A stretch of DNA of 40,824 nucleotides. Origin: Hormoscilla sp. (lineage in GTDB: Bacteria > Cyanobacteriota > Cyanobacteriia > Cyanobacteriales > Desertifilaceae). The notes under the pieces were generated by a model that saw only the letters and a program-made list of their open reading frames with translations, had not been told where the DNA came from and searched no databases. Positions 15,785-25,470 of the stretch are shown here, piece after piece; the stretch's first letter is position 1, and the number at the start of each line of letters is the position of its first letter. The stretch spans positions 1 through 40,824 of the forward strand of contig JBFRWI010000222.1 of the NCBI GenBank assembly GCA_051439505.1. Reading direction: 5' to 3'. A program made the translations under genes and the position numbers.

Positions 15785-16654
15785 ATGCCAAACCATCCTC
15801 TTGCAGAAGTATTTGGATTTCCTTTAGATAATCTGTCCCCAGAAGCACAACGCTATCGGAACAATCGGCTCTGCCCCTATAATAATAAGGTGCCGTCTTG
15901 TACGAAGGATAAAGCAAACGATCCATTAGGGGTATGTAGTGTTTATACAGGCGATGATATCGCCATTACTTGTCCGGTTCGCTTCCGTCAGGATTGGCTG
16001 ATTGCTCTCGATGCCGCAGCATTTTTTTTCCCCGACAACACTGCATGGACTTCCCTTTCGGAAATTCGTCTTAACGATAAAAACGGTCAATCTGCTGGTA
16101 ATATAGATTGGGTGTTGGTCGCTTACGATAGTAGGGGGCGCGTCATTGATTTTGGAACATTGGAAGTTCAATCAGTGTATATTTCTGGCAACGTGCGTCG
16201 TCCATTTGAATATTATATGGAAGACCCCGATCGGCGCTATAATCTGGACTGGCGTGGACGGATAAACTATCCCCGTCCTGACTACCTATCGTCTTCGCGT
16301 AAGCGTCTGGCCCCACAATTGATTTATAAGGGAGGAATCCTCAAAGAATGGGGGAAAAAACAGGCGGTTGCTTTACATAAAGGGTTTTATAATACTCTTC
16401 CTCCACTGCCAGAAGTGGAGCCCACAGAAGCAGATGTCGCTTGGCTAATTTATGATTTAAAGCACGATTTGGCTAGGAACTGCTATCAGCTTACCGAATT
16501 TCGCAAAGTTTATACTTTATTTGAACCAGCTCTCGATAGAATCACTACTCCGGAAGCAGGTTCCCTTGAATATTTTTGCGATTTATTGCAAGAAAAACTA
16601 GATGAAAAGTTGGAGAATCCTCCAGATGCTCCGACACTCACAGACCTTTTGTAG
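15785..16654 (+). CDS. NotI-family type II restriction endonuclease
   Basis: AEVFGF start; four Cys (CPYNNKVPSC...GVCS...TCP) like the NotI metal-binding site; NIDWVL...EVQSVYISGN catalytic region; RPDYLSSSRKRLAPQL; AGGAG RBS. Confidence 0.85.
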   Translation: MPNHPLAEVFGFPLDNLSPEAQRYRNNRLCPYNNKVPSCTKDKANDPLGVCSVYTGDDIAITCPVRFRQDWLIALDAAAFFFPDNTAWTSLSEIRLNDKNGQSAGNIDWVLVAYDSRGRVIDFGTLEVQSVYISGNVRRPFEYYMEDPDRRYNLDWRGRINYPRPDYLSSSRKRLAPQLIYKGGILKEWGKKQAVALHKGFYNTLPPLPEVEPTEADVAWLIYDLKHDLARNCYQLTEFRKVYTLFEPALDRITTPEAGSLEYFCDLLQEKLDEKLENPPDAPTLTDLL

Positions 16655-16664
16655 TTTAAGTTTT

Positions 16665-17567
16665 ATGATCCGTCAATTATCCCTGTTTGAAAATACCGTT
16701 CCCGAGAAAATTACCAATGTGATGTCGGTGCCTCTGCGGAGTCCTTTCCGATATCCCGGGGGGAAAACTTGGTTGGTGCCGCGCATTCGGCAATGGTTGA
16801 CACGCGGCTACGCTTACTCTGTCGGAAAGACTGAATTTATTGAGCCTTTTGTGGGAGGTGGCATTGTTAGTCTGACTGTGGCATTTGAGCAGTTAGCCGA
16901 TCGCGTAACAATGGTGGAAATCGATTCCGAAGTGGCAGCAGTGTGGCAAACTATTCTGGAAGGCAGCGATCGCGCCTGGTTGCAAGAGCGTATTTCCACT
17001 TTTAACATTTCTCCTGATGCTGTTAATTCGGTGCTGGATGCTGTTCCCGTTGACCTTAAAGAAAAGGCGTTTCAGACAATTTTGAAAAATCGCGTCAATC
17101 GCGGCGGTATCCTCGCAGCAGGTGCGGGTAAAATTAAACGTGGCGAAAAGGGCAAAGGAATCGCATCTCGCTGGTATCCAGAAACCCTCAAACGGCGAAT
17201 TTTGAATATCGAAAAAATATGCGATCGCCTCATCTTTATTGCTGGTGATGGGATGGAGTTTCTCAGAAAAAATGCTCATCGCTCTAATGCAGTATTTTTC
17301 ATAGATCCTCCTTACACCGCAGCAGGGAAAAAAGCAGGCAGTCGTCTTTACACCCATTGGGAACTCGACCATGAAGAACTTTTCCGCATTTCTAGTACCC
17401 TGTCTGGAGATTTTCTGATGACTTACGATAATGTTAAAGAAGTCCGTCAGTTAGCCAATAAATTCGGATTTGATACGGAAACTGTGCAGATGAAAAATAC
17501 CCATCATGCTAAAATGACAGAACTGCTCATCGGACGGAATTTGGATTGGGTGCGATCGCCGCTATGA
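16665..17567 (+). CDS. DNA amino-methyltransferase, D12/Dam-like (alpha class, probably m6A)
   Basis: SPFRYPGGK, EPFVGGG (motif I), DPPY (motif IV); starts just after the REase stop (10-nt gap). Confidence 0.92.
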   Translation: MIRQLSLFENTVPEKITNVMSVPLRSPFRYPGGKTWLVPRIRQWLTRGYAYSVGKTEFIEPFVGGGIVSLTVAFEQLADRVTMVEIDSEVAAVWQTILEGSDRAWLQERISTFNISPDAVNSVLDAVPVDLKEKAFQTILKNRVNRGGILAAGAGKIKRGEKGKGIASRWYPETLKRRILNIEKICDRLIFIAGDGMEFLRKNAHRSNAVFFIDPPYTAAGKKAGSRLYTHWELDHEELFRISSTLSGDFLMTYDNVKEVRQLANKFGFDTETVQMKNTHHAKMTELLIGRNLDWVRSPL

Positions 17568-17616
17568 TTTGATAAAAATATTTGTCAATAGAGCATCGAA
17601 GATGATAGCACCATGG

Positions 17617-17642
17617 CGATCGCGAAATCGATTTCGCGATCG
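17617..17642. terminator. Perfect 26-bp palindrome between convergent genes
   Basis: CGATCGCGAAATCGATTTCGCGATCG is its own reverse complement. Confidence 0.5.
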
Positions 17643-17657
17643 TAGAATAATTACCGA

Positions 17658-19025
17658 TTAGTCACAAGCAAGCTGCTGGCGAGACTCTGGATCGTTATTG
17701 GGGAAACAGAGTCCGCTGGGTAAACGTTTTGGCACATAACGACTCAAGTTGGGGTCGCGCAACCCTGTCTCTAGGAAAGCAGTAAGGTCATCGACTTCCT
17801 TTTCCGTCAAGTTTAGAGGTTGGAAAAATCGGCTGATATTGCCAGAATACTTGGCGGCTAAGTTTTCTGGTTTTCCTCGGTTAAAATAATCAACCACTTC
17901 CCCCAGGGTCCCAAAAGAAGCTCCATGTCCGTAGGGAGTGCTATCTGCTAGGTTGTAAAGCTGCGGCACCTTGAACTTAAAGTCATCCCTAGCTCGTCTG
18001 GTAATGGCCCCTCTGCCTAAGTCAAGTCCGCTGAAATCATTCGGATGGTCTGCAAATCCTACAGCATAAAAATCGTCCCGAGCTAAGTTCGGTCCCCTAT
18101 GGCATCGAAGGCAGTTAGCTTTGAAGCTAAAAAATACTATTCCTCCTCGGAGTTCTTTGGCAGACATGGCTTTTTTATCACCTTTCAACCATTTTTGAAA
18201 GGGCGCTTCGTTCGCAAGAAGGGTCCGTTCGTAGGCGGCGATCGCCAGACCGGCCCTTTTGAGATCTTCTACCTCAGCGGCTACATAGGGGCGATCGGGA
18301 AACGCCTGGGCGAAAAGTTCTTGGTATTCCGGAATTTGGGCGATCGCCGCTGTCCCCAGTCTGTGAACCGTAAAAGCATCGATCGCCTGAGCTTCTAAGC
18401 CATGTAGCTTCAACCGATTTACATCTGTTGCTTTAATTAAAGGTTCTTTACCATTAGAACCAGTCACCCCTAAGCGTCCATTCCAGAGCGTTGCTTCTTG
18501 ATAAGCACTGTTAAGTACCGAGGGAGCCAAAATGTTCGGTTTATCAATTTCCGTATGGGCCAGATCTGGATCCTGATGTCTAGACTTATTATAGCCTAAT
18601 CCTCCCGTTCCTAGCGATCGGGCTAAGTTAGACCTAAATCCTGCTTCAGCTATATGACAGGTCGCGCAGCTTGCGGTTTTCCAATTCTTCACATTTAGGG
18701 AATTAATCGATAGTGCTGTTTCGTGGAATAGCAAATTTCCTAACTTTACCTTTTCTGGCGTTAGTGGGTTCAGGGTATCTGCCGGTATACTATCTAGTTC
18801 GTAAGATTCCGGGAGAATAAAATATTCTCGCCCTTTCTTATCTGGAGCTGCTGCTTTCACTAACTTTTCTAGTCTACTATTGAGGTAATTGATAACCAAT
18901 TTATCCCCTCTGTTACTAGCTTCTTGCGGTGACAGCGCCCAGGCCAAACCTATCTTGCTAACCAGCATTAATAAAATTACAGTTGTTATCGGAATAACTC
19001 TGACAATCATTTGTTTAATTCTCAT
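17658..19025 (-). CDS. Exported di-heme cytochrome c peroxidase-family protein (MauG/BthA/MbnH-like)
   Basis: Signal peptide; KVKLGNLLFHETALS; heme motifs CATCH and CLRCH; PSVLN, LWNGR, AIAAYERTL, FKVPQLYNL, PYGHG, VVDYFN. Confidence 0.9.
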   Translation of the reverse strand: MRIKQMIVRVIPITTVILLMLVSKIGLAWALSPQEASNRGDKLVINYLNSRLEKLVKAAAPDKKGREYFILPESYELDSIPADTLNPLTPEKVKLGNLLFHETALSINSLNVKNWKTASCATCHIAEAGFRSNLARSLGTGGLGYNKSRHQDPDLAHTEIDKPNILAPSVLNSAYQEATLWNGRLGVTGSNGKEPLIKATDVNRLKLHGLEAQAIDAFTVHRLGTAAIAQIPEYQELFAQAFPDRPYVAAEVEDLKRAGLAIAAYERTLLANEAPFQKWLKGDKKAMSAKELRGGIVFFSFKANCLRCHRGPNLARDDFYAVGFADHPNDFSGLDLGRGAITRRARDDFKFKVPQLYNLADSTPYGHGASFGTLGEVVDYFNRGKPENLAAKYSGNISRFFQPLNLTEKEVDDLTAFLETGLRDPNLSRYVPKRLPSGLCFPNNDPESRQQLACD

Positions 19026-19034
19026 TTTCTTCTC

Positions 19035-19610
19035 TCATAATACCTTGAACAACTCATAGCAATATCTACTTAAAGGAATCCCGAGCAACCGGTAGGATTT
19101 TCCAGATACTTCCTTGACAACCAGAAAATCAATTAATGGTTCTTCCGAAGAACTATCCAATATTTCCAACTCCTGGGATACCAGGTTGAGGGCATGACCT
19201 GCACTCATGGTAATCCACTCACCACTAGCATTTCTCAAATCAGTAATTAAAAATAAATTTTCATCATTTTTTCTTGGCAACTCTTCAGTCTCATCTTCTA
19301 AGGGAATAATAATAGACCAACTTGCTCCCAGAAATCTAGCGATATCTCGCAAGCGGATGCTGACTTGAATCAGTTGCTTTTCCGTAAGGGGATTTTCCGG
19401 AACCATCTGCCAATATTCTAGCCCTAACTCAGACAAATCGAGCAGAGATCCCACATTTCTGAATGACGAGAGCCCTGGGGTAGGCAAGAAGCTAGGTTCT
19501 GGCTTTATGTTTGATGGTGCTGCATATCCCTGCTGGCTGTTAACTATCCATAGGAAGACAACTATTACCCATAAATTAATTAACTTTTTGCTTGACCATT
19601 TACAATTCAT
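19035..19610 (-). CDS. Exported hypothetical protein, divergent paralog 4
   Basis: Signal peptide ending QGYA; ELGLEY, RNASGE, IDFLVV, RYCYE weakly match paralogs 1-3. Confidence 0.75.
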   Translation of the reverse strand: MNCKWSSKKLINLWVIVVFLWIVNSQQGYAAPSNIKPEPSFLPTPGLSSFRNVGSLLDLSELGLEYWQMVPENPLTEKQLIQVSIRLRDIARFLGASWSIIIPLEDETEELPRKNDENLFLITDLRNASGEWITMSAGHALNLVSQELEILDSSSEEPLIDFLVVKEVSGKSYRLLGIPLSRYCYELFKVL

Positions 19611-19652
19611 TACCGTCGCACCTTCATTCAAATTTACGCCTAGTTACTACAT

Positions 19653-20309
19653 TTATATCTGCTCTGCTGGTATTTGCTCTTCTGGAGACAATGAAGCAGA
19701 ATCATCAACCCGAACAGTTCCGTTTAATGCTGCATTCAGGGCATCTCTGAAAATAGCTATAAACCTGACATTTTTCACCAGATACACTTGATTGTTTTGC
19801 TGGTTCCGTACAATCAAATCAATTACTGCCACCCGCCTTGCTAGCAAAACGCTACCGCTAGCATCCGCTACCAAAATTTCTCCAGCGGGTGTCGTTAATG
19901 CGTTACCTCTTGTTAAATTATTGATTTGGCTGTCAAATAGCTCGTTCAGGTCAGCAGGGGTAAATTTGGATGGCTGTCCGGATAAATTCATCCATCCTAG
20001 AGCTTGATACTCACTTGCTTGGGAAGAATTACCTGACCCATCGCCTATGCGAACGGGACTGTTAACTCCGAGGGGAAATGTAACTGCTTGTCCGGCAGGT
20101 AATTGAGATACCGCTGTCTTAGCTTCGCGAACGAGGGCAAGGTATTGCTCTTGACCTAACTCTGCGGGGGTCTGCCCTGTTGCCGTCAATTGTTGACTCG
20201 TATCCATTGGTTGGTTAGCCCGCCCTAGCGACTCTAAGATAACAACAGAAAACCCAATAAGTACCATCCCTACCAGTCCAATCTTCGATATAATTTGAAT
20301 CCGTTTCAT
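19653..20309 (-). CDS. Exported hypothetical protein, paralog 3 (acidic tail)
   Basis: GGAGGTG RBS; signal peptide; TPAELG, LGVNSPVRIG, SGQP, LVADASG, IDLIV, RDALN. Confidence 0.82.
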   Translation of the reverse strand: MKRIQIISKIGLVGMVLIGFSVVILESLGRANQPMDTSQQLTATGQTPAELGQEQYLALVREAKTAVSQLPAGQAVTFPLGVNSPVRIGDGSGNSSQASEYQALGWMNLSGQPSKFTPADLNELFDSQINNLTRGNALTTPAGEILVADASGSVLLARRVAVIDLIVRNQQNNQVYLVKNVRFIAIFRDALNAALNGTVRVDDSASLSPEEQIPAEQI

Positions 20310-20417
20310 CTCATTACACCTCCCGTTATTTATGTTTGTCAATGTTACCCATAATTCTCCAACATCATATTTTTTTGATGCTGATGTCCGTGAAGATAGT
20401 TAGCATGAGTTGACGAT

Positions 20418-20565
20418 GGGTGTGGTCAAAAACCGTTGATAGTTCAAACGCCTCCCCAGTCGCCCGATCCCCCCCAAACCCCCCCTTCCAAAAGGGGGGG
20501 CCTATAAGCCCCCCTTTTTAAGGGGGGTTTGGGGGGATCGGATACAACTACTTTTGACCACACCC
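20418..20565. mobile_element. MITE (GGGTGTGGTCA TIR family) with nested palindrome, inserted inside the paralog cluster
   Basis: TIRs at 20418 and 20555-20565; extra GCCACACCC after the right end; near-TSD GTTGACGAT / GTTAACGAT. Confidence 0.85.
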
Positions 20566-20579
20566 GCCACACCCGTTAA

Positions 20580-20609
20580 CGATGGTGGGAGCAATTTTTC
20601 CCACCATCG
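20580..20609 (-). terminator. Stem-loop immediately after the paralog 2 stop
   Basis: CGATGGTGGGA-gcaatttt-TCCCACCATCG. Confidence 0.55.
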
Positions 20610-20615
20610 CTGAAA

Positions 20616-21386
20616 TTAGCGCAACCTGGGATCGTTTATTCTTCGCTGTGGTCTTGTGACTCTGAATGTATTTATCCTCCTCAATCGATGCCTCACAGCG
20701 CCATTAACTGCATCGCGACACAACGCATTCACATTCACTTTATTAACTAGATAGTTGTGCTTGTTGCTGCGATTGTGAACTATCAAACTGACCACAGGAA
20801 CCCGCCGTTGTCCAATCAACATTCCGCTCGCATCAGCCACCAAACTGTGTTCTGCTTTAACTTTAAAAGCTATTAGACCCTCATTTTTGGCGTCTTCAAT
20901 CAATGTCCCGTCGGTAAATAAACCGCCTTTAGCTGCTTCCTGAGCTGCCATTTCGCCTATGTCGTCAGGCGTTATTGGTTGCGGTTGTCCTGAATTATCG
21001 ATGTATGCTATACCTGTAAATTCCGAAGAAGCTAATTGTCCACCATCAGGCAGCACTCCGAACTGGATTGGAAAGGCCGTACCTAAGTCTACTCCCAAAG
21101 GCTCGTTTCCTTCAAAGTCTACAGCTAGCTCCTCTGGAACCCTCCGGAGAGTATCTATAAGGCCCCTGCTAATTTCAATCGGTTCCGTCGCTTCTCCTAA
21201 ATACTCCAGACCCATTTCCTCTGGCGTCAAAATTCCATCAATTAAGCCTAGGTCGATCATGTTCTGATTCCTAGCAATTATGGCATTGGATGGTTGAGCC
21301 GTGAATATGGAAAAGGAAACTGCCACACCAGCGATGAATAGCAGTGCTAGCGTTCCCCAAACTTTGAACTTTTTCATCTTTTTCAT
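20616..21386 (-). CDS. Exported hypothetical protein, paralog 2 (Arg-rich tail)
   Basis: GAGGAG RBS before MKKMKK; signal peptide AQPSNA; TPEEMGLEYL, LPDGGQL, YIDNSGQP, LVADASG, NALCRDAVN. Confidence 0.85.
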   Translation of the reverse strand: MKKMKKFKVWGTLALLFIAGVAVSFSIFTAQPSNAIIARNQNMIDLGLIDGILTPEEMGLEYLGEATEPIEISRGLIDTLRRVPEELAVDFEGNEPLGVDLGTAFPIQFGVLPDGGQLASSEFTGIAYIDNSGQPQPITPDDIGEMAAQEAAKGGLFTDGTLIEDAKNEGLIAFKVKAEHSLVADASGMLIGQRRVPVVSLIVHNRSNKHNYLVNKVNVNALCRDAVNGAVRHRLRRINTFRVTRPQRRINDPRLR

Positions 21387-21466
21387 TTCGCTCCTCTCTC
21401 TTGAGTGCTTGTCACTTGTTGGTCCGGGATTAAAACTCCCTGTATTATAACCAATTAGCACTGCGA

Positions 21467-22153
21467 TTACCAACGTCGCATTCTTCGTCTCGGTCGTCTC
21501 ACGCGAAAGTTCGCTCTTCTGAGGGTTCTATTCAAAACGCTATTGAGGGCATCTCGGCAAACCGCATTTGGATTGACATCATTAACGATAAACAGCTCGT
21601 TTGAACCCTTGGGATGAACGATTAGATCAATGCTCGGAATTCTCTGGGCTTGTATAAACGTACTGCTAGCATCAGCTACTAGATGATACTCTGATTCAGG
21701 TGTCATCACCAACTGCCCGTCATTTCTGGCTTCGTTGCTGAACATGAATTTCAGATTGCTAGATCTCAGAGATTTAGCCTGTCCTGAGCGATCGATGTAT
21801 CCGACAGCTTCGTAGTTACTTCTTCTGTTGAGTTGTCGCCCGTCTGGCAGAGCGCCAATTCTAATAGGGCTATTGGTTCCCAAATCAAATGCTACTCTGA
21901 TGTTTTCAGGCACTTGAGCGACTCGTTCTTCTGCGTACCTGATACTGTCCACCAGTCCAGCCATTAGCTGTACCGGCTCTTGATGCAGGTAGTTCAACCC
22001 CAGACTTTCAGGGGTTCTGACTTCATATATTGACGGACCGAACTCGGTTCCCATCGCTCCCTGTGACGGTCGTGCTATCAGCACGGACATTGAAAGGGTT
22101 AGGAGTGCTAGCACCACTAGGGCCAATCTCCTCCATGACTTGAGCCAACTCAT
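21467..22153 (-). CDS. Exported hypothetical protein, paralog 1 (Arg-rich tail)
   Basis: GGAGG RBS; signal peptide ARPSQG; TPESLGLNYL, LGTNSPIRIG, LPDGRQL, YIDRSGQ, LVADASS, NAVCRDALN. Confidence 0.85.
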   Translation of the reverse strand: MSWLKSWRRLALVVLALLTLSMSVLIARPSQGAMGTEFGPSIYEVRTPESLGLNYLHQEPVQLMAGLVDSIRYAEERVAQVPENIRVAFDLGTNSPIRIGALPDGRQLNRRSNYEAVGYIDRSGQAKSLRSSNLKFMFSNEARNDGQLVMTPESEYHLVADASSTFIQAQRIPSIDLIVHPKGSNELFIVNDVNPNAVCRDALNSVLNRTLRRANFRVRRPRRRMRRW

Positions 22154-22245
22154 TCGATCGCCTCCCCAATCGACCTAGTTCCCAGATATTGTAGCATTGT
22201 AGCCCACATTCGTGGTGAACAGCATTTTTTTTGAATGGGTGTCAA

Positions 22246-22261
22246 TGTATTATAAACTACA
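22246..22261. promoter_or_regulatory. Candidate NtcA-type site TGTA-N8-TACA upstream of the paralog cluster
   Basis: TGTATTATAAACTACA; contains TATAAT on the minus strand and abuts TTGACA; tandem GCTACAAT -10-like boxes at 22188-22203. Confidence 0.3.
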
Positions 22262-22381
22262 TTTTTTGCAGGAGTTGGCCGGATGGGTATAATACGTCAG
22301 CTATAGTATTTGTCATTATTTTGATACAAATGGCTATTATACAGCTGCCATCTACCCAATTTTCAATAATTTTAGCTGTTC

Positions 22382-23541: not shown

Positions 23542-25470
23542 CTAATAACGGATAGTACCATCAGGCATAATTGCTCCGGAGAGATTAGCCTCCCAAAAAT
23601 TAGCACCGAGTAGCTGGGCATCCTTGAGGTTAGCATATTGCAAGTTAGCACCTTTGAGCTTGACCGCCTGTAAGTTAGCACCCTCCAGGTTGGCATATTG
23701 CAATTTAGCATTCTGTAAATTAGCACCTTTGAGGTTGGCACCCTCCAGGTTGCTACCCGCCATGTTAGCATGGGACAGATCCGCATCGGATAGATTCACA
23801 TTTCCCAGGTTAACACCTTCAGCTCCCTGATTGACAATTTGCCAGACCAGACGGAGATTTTCATCCAGTTGGGTAGCCTCGTCTATCTTAACACCTCTCA
23901 TGTTAACACCCTGCAAGTTAGCACCCTGCAAGTTAGCACCCTGGAGGTTGGCCCCCTTCAGCTTGGCACCCTGGAGGTTGGCATCGGATAAATTGGCACC
24001 TGCGAGGTTAGCATCTTCCAAGTAAGCATCGGACAAGTTGGCACCTTTCAGGTTAGCACCGGATAAGTTAGCATCCCAGAGGTTGGTTCTCAAATTAGCA
24101 TTTTCCAGATTGGCATTTTTGAGGTTTGTTCCCCCTAAATTAGCAGTTTTTAAGTCGGCATTTTTGAGGTTAACACCTTGCAAGTTAGCACCCTGAAGAT
24201 TAACCCCCTGCAATTTTACTTTCTGTAAATTTGCATCCTGGAAATTAACACCCTGCAAAGCAGCATTGTCCAGTTTAACACCTTCCAGGTTGGCACCCGA
24301 TAAGTTGCCATTCGATAAGTTGGCATCCTGTAGATAGGCACCGGACAAGTTGGCACTTTCTAGGTTAGCGGACTCTAGGTTCGCATTTGCTAAGTAGGCA
24401 CCCTGAAATTTGGCACCCGATAAGTTGGCACCCGATAAGTTGGCACTCTTCAGGTTCGCATCCACTAATTGGGCATTTTGCAGATCGCAGTCTTGACATT
24501 CTCTAGTTCGCAGCAACTGATTGATGGGAAGGTTATACCAATAAATTCCCCAACTCGTACCCAGTAGGGCGATAAAACTGAGAGTAGTCAGCAGGACTGG
24601 AGTTAATTTTCGGGGTTTTATTTCTGACTTTTCTGGCACGGGAATATCGCCGACAACTTTAATCGGTTTGAGTGCTGATAGGGCAATTTCAGCATTAGCA
24701 TAGCGCTGTTTCACCTGGGGAGAGGTCATCTTAGTTAGCCAGTCAATGAAGCTGCGACTGAGTTGACCTGGCTTATCTTTCAAATTAAAGCATAAGTTGT
24801 CATTAATTAAGTCTGTGATGTCAACGGAACGGGTGCCCGTCAGTAAGCAAATTAATGTCGCCCCTAAACTATAGAGGTCTGAGGCTGTTGTCAGGGCCCG
24901 ATCGAACATTTCTTCCGGGGGCATAAAGCCCGGAGTGCCCGCCGCTACGCTGCTAGCAGCAACTTCTCCATCCCGAAGGCGGGCGAGGCCAAAATCAACT
25001 AGGTAGGCATTCAGGCGATCGTCCAGTAAGATATTTTCCGGTTTAATGTCCCGATGAATGACCTTTTTCTGTTGCAGGTAAACTAATATTTCTAATACAG
25101 AAAGGGCAATTTGCTTGACTTGTGCGGGAGTAAAATTGCGTCGTGACTCTAAGGTCGGGGCATCTTTATATTCCGTTACCAGGCAAAAGCCCGATCGGGT
25201 TTCAAAGGAGTTCAGGTAGGGGGGGATGCGAGGATGATCTAGCTGTTGCAAAACTTGGATTTCCCGTTCGTAGGCTTTAAAGCTGGACCAACTGGCATCG
25301 CTAAGGGCAAAGCGGAACTCTTTGATAACAACTTCTCGGTCTGAGTCGATATTCTTAGCATGGTAAGTGATGTGCCCTCCCGACCAGTTGCGCCCCAGTT
25401 CTCTGATGATCTCATAGCCGTGGCTGCCAAAGTCAGGATATTTGGATATTGTTGATTGGAGATTCGGCAT
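23542..25470 (-). CDS. Ser/Thr protein kinase with TM and C-terminal pentapeptide repeats
   Basis: VVIKEF, HRDIKPEN, DFG, GTPGFMPPE; TM; many A(N/D)LxG repeats. Confidence 0.93.
   Translation of the reverse strand: MPNLQSTISKYPDFGSHGYEIIRELGRNWSGGHITYHAKNIDSDREVVIKEFRFALSDASWSSFKAYEREIQVLQQLDHPRIPPYLNSFETRSGFCLVTEYKDAPTLESRRNFTPAQVKQIALSVLEILVYLQQKKVIHRDIKPENILLDDRLNAYLVDFGLARLRDGEVAASSVAAGTPGFMPPEEMFDRALTTASDLYSLGATLICLLTGTRSVDITDLINDNLCFNLKDKPGQLSRSFIDWLTKMTSPQVKQRYANAEIALSALKPIKVVGDIPVPEKSEIKPRKLTPVLLTTLSFIALLGTSWGIYWYNLPINQLLRTRECQDCDLQNAQLVDANLKSANLSGANLSGAKFQGAYLANANLESANLESANLSGAYLQDANLSNGNLSGANLEGVKLDNAALQGVNFQDANLQKVKLQGVNLQGANLQGVNLKNADLKTANLGGTNLKNANLENANLRTNLWDANLSGANLKGANLSDAYLEDANLAGANLSDANLQGAKLKGANLQGANLQGANLQGVNMRGVKIDEATQLDENLRLVWQIVNQGAEGVNLGNVNLSDADLSHANMAGSNLEGANLKGANLQNAKLQYANLEGANLQAVKLKGANLQYANLKDAQLLGANFWEANLSGAIMPDGTIRY

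Follow-up and report, generated by a model that had tools for sequence, protein, structure and literature searches.

A di-heme peroxidase-superfamily protein linked to a small family of paralogs with export-type leaders in a rare cyanobacterial gene cassette

Introduction

Do five neighbouring genes of the cyanobacterium Hormoscilla sp. encode a di-heme oxidant together with its own protein partners? The window analysed here, the whole 40,824-nucleotide stretch of contig JBFRWI010000222.1 (assembly GCA_051439505.1), carries on one strand four genes for small proteins with export-type leaders, p1 to p4, and behind them the gene of a protein with two heme-binding motifs, hereafter the peroxidase. 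In the CCP_MauG superfamily, the few enzymes with partners of their own are a source of unusual oxidants and of protein-derived cofactors. Oxidation of a partner protein by MauG and by MbnH is outlined in part of PMC11951088. A sequence-only reading of the window had taken p1 to p4 for paralogs of an unrecognised family and the peroxidase for a MauG-type enzyme acting on a hetero-oligomer of them or pairing with it.

Results

Linkage of the peroxidase to the paralog genes

When genomes were searched with the paralogs, a close relative of the peroxidase was present at 6/6 loci. In the search with the peroxidase, G366, G220, G661 (whose sequence equals that of L006) and G709 all carried the cassette, while four loci with more distant peroxidase relatives (E 1e-80 to 1e-102) had none and a fifth locus was too short. 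Among metagenome loci, for which the best 80 of 567 confirmed peroxidase matches were kept, family genes accompanied the peroxidase at all 13 loci with at least 61% identity (some of them redundant) and at none of the 67 with 40-48% identity, which form a sister clade and of which 39 had at least 3 kb of upstream sequence. With p4 as a query in 390 other genomes, four of four strong matches adjoined the peroxidase, a count that leaves out two weak matches (E 4e-4 and 6e-4). The co-occurrence with one peroxidase clade that the sequence-only reading anticipated was thus borne out, and homologs of the paralogs are not usually peroxidase-free.

After de-duplication, 23 cassettes were compared. Their genes lie on one strand with the peroxidase last and one p4-type gene each; the p4 of L001 is frameshifted, and the peroxidase of G709 is divided between two contigs. 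Cassettes with their upstream part available hold between one and six further family genes, and the smallest cassette (L171) consists of one gene of the Cys-bearing type represented by p1 and p2, one p4-type gene and the peroxidase. The distances of p4 and the peroxidase correlate (rho 0.72, 19 cassettes, with a poorly resolved p4 tree), which reflects shared history and is no proof of co-evolution. The cassette is almost certainly one functional unit.

Decay is seen in some members. Family genes disrupted by a frameshift or a transposase lie at L001 9406-10192 and 11503-12142, L004 8799-9158 and L169 7617-8799, and in L001 the broken p4 stands beside an intact peroxidase. Six cassettes (L003, L005, L053, L056, L058 and L189) adjoin genes that we mostly take to be of vWA/TerY-type, kinase, OmpA or tubulin-like stress-locus kinds. 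In the loci that were read, no metabolic gene is a conserved neighbour of the cassette. Three orphan places of the family were recorded, and near one of them, the solo copy of G661, a Septu-type PtuA/PtuB pair was observed (L149 138-2083).

Predicted pairing of p4 with the peroxidase

The complex of the peroxidase, two hemes and p4 was predicted with a score of 0.89, the best of 3 controls reaching 0.00. This mark was attained by 116/157 solved and 2/215 mismatched pairs, a calibration that holds roughly only, as our own alignments and hemes were used. Contacts agreed between runs to 94% or more, and the partner had a predicted local distance difference test score (pLDDT) of at least 83. In the model p4 docks by residues of conserved helices (R88, D89, R92, G95, G138, L141 and Q146) on the second-heme domain of the enzyme, at residues 330-348 and 389-394. 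Within p4, conservation is higher in the interface columns than in the others (0.65 vs 0.52, p 0.014). The invariant residues of p4 are L80, R92, L94, G138 and L141. On the enzyme side, the interface residues G333, L334, D348 and Y393 are kept in 93-100% of 57 clade proteins and in 0-10% of 58 outgroup proteins. The prediction supports binding and does not show it.

Two natural fusions of p4 to the peroxidase, P0092 and P0301, were found on 3 contigs; they belong to one lineage, are 96% identical and have no second leader. Their p4 domains keep the docking motifs and lack W67, W98 and C184, and p4 therefore reads as a subunit rather than as a cofactor-bearing substrate. In a search for longer p4 fusions none scored, but the search was insensitive, since it missed P0092. 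No similar solved complex was found, p4 being without a family match. Of the physical partnership proposed earlier, it is the pairing with p4 that gained support, from the predicted complex and the fusions, and we regard an enzyme-p4 complex as very probable.

Residues of the di-heme protein

The peroxidase matched the Pfam family CCP_MauG (PF03150) with 92.9 bits against a cut-off of 25.6, and its two CxxCH motifs, at residues 120-124 and 305-309, are invariant. It fell below the cut-offs of the narrower models, with 119.9 of 443.85 bits for MauG (TIGR03791), 120.5 of 340 bits for the MauG-like protein of the His-Xaa-Ser system (TIGR03981) and 132.5 of 362.85 bits for MbnH (TIGR04039), although the last was the best NCBIfam match (E 2e-38). 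The label MauG-type is accordingly sound for the superfamily and fails at the MauG and MbnH models and, as aligned, at the axial residue described below; by these matches the protein is a CCP_MauG member that is neither MauG nor MbnH. The nearest solved sequences are canonical peroxidases (E 1e-25), MauG following at E 1e-5, and a weak match to the hydrazine synthase gamma model was seen (E 0.008). Its clade comprises about 60 relatives with 57-80% identity, of which those with names are cyanobacterial; the next matches come after a gap, at 43-50%.

Residue conservation was counted in the same 57 clade and 58 outgroup proteins, with assignments made from sequence alone. The putative inter-heme Trp, W181, aligns with WDGR and is present in 57/57 clade proteins, whereas the position of the calcium-site Asn is Leu (L166) in 56/57. 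At the position of the axial Met or Tyr, 54/57 clade proteins have Phe381 and 51/58 outgroup proteins Lys; F, L or I occupies it in 57/57 clade proteins, and no Met is conserved after the second CxxCH. At the second heme, canonical enzymes have His-Met and MauG-type enzymes His-Tyr ligation, as set out in part of PMC11892367; the canonical His-Met ligation of the electron-transfer heme appears to be missing here. Tyr380, beside Phe381, is invariant, but ligation by it would require a shift of register in the alignment. His327 is clade-specific, and its gain together with the change from K381 to F marks the cyanobacterial clade.

On the distal side, part of PMC6405878 lists as common features a Gln/Pro/Glu triad, for enzymes of the bacterial cytochrome c peroxidase (bCcP), MauG and BthA types, and a calcium site, for the bCcP and MauG types. 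Two registers can be drawn in the cassette enzyme, one with N191, P195 (30/57) and D201 (43/57), the other with Q213, G or A217 and R or K222. Glu211 and His221 are invariant, the latter being followed mostly by Arg or Lys, and the two might substitute for the distal triad. A distal His/Arg pair would recall plant-type peroxidases. The pair Cys440/Cys454 is also conserved.

The sister clade, at 40-50% identity (named matches: Rubrivirga, Saprospiraceae, Ignavibacteriae, Persicobacter, Emticicia), has the same invariant residues, W181, N203, E211, H221, Y357, H367, Y380, C440 and C454. It differs in having mostly Lys381, in lacking His327 and Tyr393, in the rarity of Asp348 and in standing alone, its commonest real neighbour being found at 8/67 loci. 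This widespread group of di-heme proteins (L063-L129), with its axial Lys and invariant distal His, had no characterisation in the literature searches. Upstream of one sister-clade peroxidase (L041 265-8203), signal-peptide proteins alternate with short proteins, presumably ankyrin-like; the array looks like toxin-immunity pairs.

A small family of paralogs

The proteins p1 to p3 match one another in BLASTP (E 1e-18 to 1e-48), whereas p4 gave nothing significant against them in BLAST (E above 1.8) and was joined to them only by profile-profile comparison (probability 91.4, E 9e-7). By these comparisons the four share ancestry with p4 as a distant paralog, in line with the weaker kinship it had been given before. 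Searches of Pfam, NCBIfam, PHROG and PDB sequences with the paralogs gave nothing meaningful, and Foldseek against the PDB and viral models gave no match at E 0.001 or better, so the family remains matched to no characterised one, as the sequence-only reading supposed. It is small (153 proteins among 1.84 billion representatives, with a 37-row profile) and has a common core of about 105-150 residues. Four types were distinguished: Cys-bearing (p1, p2), Cys-free (p3), a short form met at other loci, and p4. The Cys falls in a single alignment column, in 102/236 aligned domains; lying in the last helix of the p1/p2-type, it is, of the oxidisable residues in the partners, the one that persists most, and a Cys-type gene is present in cassettes whose upstream part is intact. 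Ratios of non-synonymous to synonymous substitution (dN/dS) were 0.10-0.61 in 18/18 gene pairs, which shows purifying selection.

The p3 core was modelled with AlphaFold2 at a pLDDT of 85 and a predicted template modelling score (pTM) of 0.78. In a wide VIA-align comparison with 48,161 chains the best Z was 4.1 and none reached 5, a blank that does not prove the fold new. GRASP-type PDZ domains recurred at Z 3.8-3.9 over 75-78 residues (root-mean-square deviation 3.5-3.9), and GRASP/RseP-type domains share a similar strand-helix order over that part of the core; these matches are however tied with unrelated helical ones, extra flanking helices are present, and profile comparison with 9 PDZ domains of the same genome was blank. 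PDZ kinship is a lead only. An Atlas lead for p3 to a phage tail sheath (score 0.97, low recognition) was not backed by the Pfam, PHROG or fold matches, which contained no sheath, and the Atlas search with p4 gave no usable match. The PADLOC anti-phage models matched p1, p4 and the peroxidase with 0 families at 1e-10.

Relatives of p3 are often membrane-anchored. The domain at the C-terminus of P0234, a Ser/Thr kinase that has a hydrophobic segment, is of the Cys-free type, and such domains also end a trypsin-like protease (P0228) and other long proteins whose N-terminal domains look cytoplasmic; Pfam-recognised fusions were 2/34 proteins scanned. Tandem pairs of family domains occur in L050 (1481-2647), P0155 and P0157. 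One N-terminal membrane anchor is common to L147 2781-3494 and L148 5815-6369, of which one carries a family domain and the other repeats that we take to be MORN-like, a sign of domain swapping. In many p1 relatives the last residue is Trp or another hydrophobic one, which is of interest if the fold is PDZ-like, and p1 (21467-21530) and p2 (20616-20690) end in Arg-rich tails.

Acquisition and mobility

The cassette is rare and mobile among cyanobacteria. The clade peroxidase was found in 4/401 class-level genomes and in 3/144 genomes of another family, and p4 in none of 4 congeners or 13 family members. Cassettes are patchy and often lie near restriction or transposase genes, and on one plasmid record (CP150887.1) a clade peroxidase stands behind three hypothetical genes on the same strand. 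In two congeners (G870 and G881) the site is empty: the methyltransferase gene is separated from a saccharopine-dehydrogenase-like gene by 186 bp, against 4.8 kb in the window, and similarity stops exactly after a HIP1 (highly iterated palindrome) octamer. We infer that insertion in this genome is more likely than repeated loss.

The acquisition suggested by the sequence-only reading thus gained an empty site and lost the methyltransferase as a co-acquired gene. Since the congeners without the block have the methyltransferase, it cannot have come with the insert; in both congeners it sits behind a different upstream gene. The absence of HIP1 octamers from the paralog genes (none in 19035-22153) was confirmed in a genome with about 1 octamer per kb, but as a proof of transfer it was rejected: the gap is weak alone because 758/11,607 windows of the same size (6.5%) are also empty and the peroxidase gene contains two octamers. 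In codon use, p1 and p2 fall at about the 1st percentile, p3 and the peroxidase at about the 5th-6th and p4 at the 29th, in a comparison of short genes against long ones.

Layout of the locus

The coordinates, the strand and the leaders given earlier for the five genes were reproduced (Table 1), the leaders by a crude check, and the peroxidase ATG does lie 9 nucleotides past the p4 stop. All five N-termini consist of a basic stretch followed by a 13-residue hydrophobic core (mean Kyte-Doolittle value 2.6-2.8), and a crude hydropathy check found no clear later membrane helix in any of the five proteins. All chains would probably be exported, to the periplasm or the thylakoid lumen.

Table 1. 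Features of the cassette and its left flank in the window
Feature	Position	Strand	Basis
p1, Cys-bearing paralog, 228 amino acids, single Cys199 in last helix, Arg-rich tail	21467-22153	minus	open reading frame, BLASTP, alignment, model
p2, second Cys-bearing paralog, 256 amino acids from ATG at 21386	20616-21386	minus	open reading frame, BLASTP, alignment
Palindromic repeat of about 150 bp between p2 and p3, resembling a miniature inverted-repeat transposable element (MITE)	20418-20565		repeat comparison
p3, Cys-free variable-type paralog, 218 amino acids from ATG at 20309	19653-20309	minus	BLASTP, alignment, model
p4, divergent single-copy paralog, 191 amino acids, predicted peroxidase docking subunit	19035-19610	minus	profile-profile comparison, complex model, fusion
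Di-heme protein of the CCP_MauG superfamily, 455 amino acids	17658-19025	minus	Pfam, motifs, alignment
HIP1 octamer at the left junction of the 4.8-kb block (17560-22381)	17552-17559		comparison with two congeners without the block
NotI-family nuclease overlapping a D12-class methyltransferase	15785-17567		family matches

The MITE-like repeat has inverted ends of about 20 bp and a hairpin core of C/G runs. As about 135-150 similar full-length places and more than 300 core matches exist in the genome, and congeners have it too, it is not specific to the cassette. Scans for promoters (12 vs 8.3) and terminators (7 vs 4.7) gave results near chance. Upstream of the cassette, at 23542-25470, lies a Ser/Thr kinase-like open reading frame that contains a hydrophobic segment and extended pentapeptide-type repeats.

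Discussion

The reading that we prefer, held as possible rather than probable, is drawn by analogy: the enzyme with p4 would oxidise the conserved Cys of p1/p2-type proteins with peroxide. The five genes are one mobile cassette in which the two-heme protein and p4 are predicted to form a stable pair, p4 docking by its conserved helices on the second-heme domain; p4 would recruit p1 and p2 through the shared fold. Oxidising equivalents would exit heme 2 via the clade-specific Tyr393, and the pair would use hydrogen peroxide on the single conserved Cys of the p1/p2-type, outside the cytoplasm, giving a disulfide or another Cys cross-link, with p3-type proteins as variable, often membrane-anchored members. 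In its mode of action the enzyme would resemble MauG or MbnH, each a di-heme oxidant dedicated to a protein encoded alongside it, though it is neither of them.

A number of observations weigh against this scheme. Neither distal register has an invariant Glu at the usual position, and the distal Glu is described in part of PMC6405878 as required for peroxide turnover in BthA and MauG. Phe381, as aligned, cannot ligate heme 2. A high-valent oxidant is unproven because of these two features. The sister clade has most of the same oddities without a conserved neighbour. The family can occur apart from the enzyme: in G712, which lacks a clade peroxidase, two paralogs adjoin a transposase-like gene on a contig of 4.6 kb and a third family gene stands alone, and G661 has a solo extra copy. 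Clade-specific residues are not significantly enriched at the enzyme interface (4/17 vs 45/398, p 0.13). As to the proposed target, L060, which is truncated upstream, has no visible Cys-type gene, and the Cys column is Leu, Phe or Val in Cys-free paralogs and may be a buried structural position.

Other explanations fit parts of the evidence. If the peroxidase-p4 pair sensed peroxide or another heme ligand and signalled from the envelope, via the Cys-type and anchored paralogs, to cytoplasmic proteins, this would agree with the p3-type domains at the C-terminus of the kinase, of the trypsin-like protease and of other proteins with cytoplasmic-looking N-terminal domains, with the presumed vWA/TerY-like, kinase, OmpA and tubulin-like genes beside several cassettes and with the weak PDZ-like topology (Z up to 3.9). 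We consider such a sensor rather unlikely, given how few of the scanned proteins are Pfam-recognised fusions, the lack of an anchored member in the minimal cassette and the cleavable-looking leaders on all four paralogs of the window. An enzyme that simply removes peroxide, with the paralogs as scaffold or as electron donors to heme 2 and no permanent modification, is to our mind improbable to a similar degree: the nearness of canonical peroxidases among solved sequences, the placing of p4 on the second-heme domain and the retained Trp181 speak for it, whereas the enzyme has no axial Met although His-Met ligation defines canonical enzymes (in part of PMC11892367), the paralogs carry neither a heme motif nor an evident metal motif, and the stand-alone sister clade needs no partners.

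A role of p4 itself as the substrate, in which a protein-derived cofactor (Trp-Trp, Cys-Trp, Cys-Tyr or kynurenine) is made as in preMADH or MbnP, would suit its predicted direct binding and the frequency of W67 (19/26), W98 (22/26), W132 (23/26), Y183 (24/26) and C184 (23/26); none of these residues is invariant, however, and three are lost from the fused domains, which makes this quite doubtful. It is slightly more doubtful still that the heme protein is no peroxidase and binds or oxidises a small molecule while the paralogs tune or localise it. The invariant His221/Glu211, a second heme left open or ligated by His327, the non-canonical distal and axial residues with the two changes that mark the cyanobacterial clade, and the hydrazine synthase gamma match would be explained; the lack of a conserved metabolic gene beside the cassette argues against it. 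Mobility, patchiness and the nearby restriction or transposase genes could also mean that unrelated genes travel together by chance, but fixed order, the one p4 per cassette, the fusion and the 13/13 against 0/67 linkage make that extremely improbable.

Peroxide-driven oxidation of the Cys-type paralogs, the reading preferred here, can be set beside known systems. The cassette enzyme resembles MauG of Paracoccus denitrificans in its superfamily, its two CxxCH motifs, the inter-heme Trp and a dedicated co-encoded partner, and differs in its model score, in Phe at the axial Tyr position, in the lack of Glu at the usual distal position and in Leu at the calcium-binding Asn; its partners are unrelated to methylamine dehydrogenase (MADH), and one of them reads as a subunit or fused domain. 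With MbnH/MbnP of methanobactin clusters it shares a di-heme enzyme adjoining an exported partner and the best NCBIfam match, far below the cut-off, and it has several paralogs where MbnH has one partner. Unlike preMADH and MbnP, p1 to p4 lack an invariant Trp, and searches of Pfam, NCBIfam and PDB sequences gave nothing meaningful for them. BthA of Burkholderia, as described in part of PMC6405878, is likewise non-canonical; it lacks the calcium site and has a pair of conserved Cys at its surface, but it keeps Glu/Gln/Pro and His-Tyr and has no inter-heme Trp, whereas the cassette enzyme keeps the Trp and has the others altered. Canonical bCcP enzymes, although nearest among solved sequences, differ from it by the axial Met, by their distal residues, by a shorter N-terminal part and by having no dedicated partner genes. 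No description of the cassette was found in titles and abstract openings; the network tables of PMC6405878 may include the clade.

In conclusion, the cassette is a variation on the theme of a di-heme enzyme with a dedicated partner and not a member of the MauG or MbnH groups. It is directly testable in a three-gene minimal version, in a natural fusion and in a copy (G1026) with a peroxidase identical to proteins recorded under the names Arthrospira/Limnospira platensis, an identity that offers a cultured host. To the superfamily it contributes a clade, so far unstudied, in which the putative heme ligands differ from those of both known types. With this clade come a subunit predicted to be dedicated to the enzyme and partner proteins of a family for which no close solved structure was found, at the model quality and best Z given above. 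At its widest, and we think this unlikely as a whole, the cassette would represent a new class of di-heme oxidant made of two subunits, its distal pocket of the His/Arg type and its second heme non-canonical. This oxidant would build an assembly, covalently cross-linked or switched by redox state, from members of a diversifying family whose fold is not represented among solved structures; membrane-anchored paralogs would couple it to cytoplasmic kinases, as a peroxide-driven assembly and signalling module of the envelope that moves between cyanobacteria, including Spirulina.

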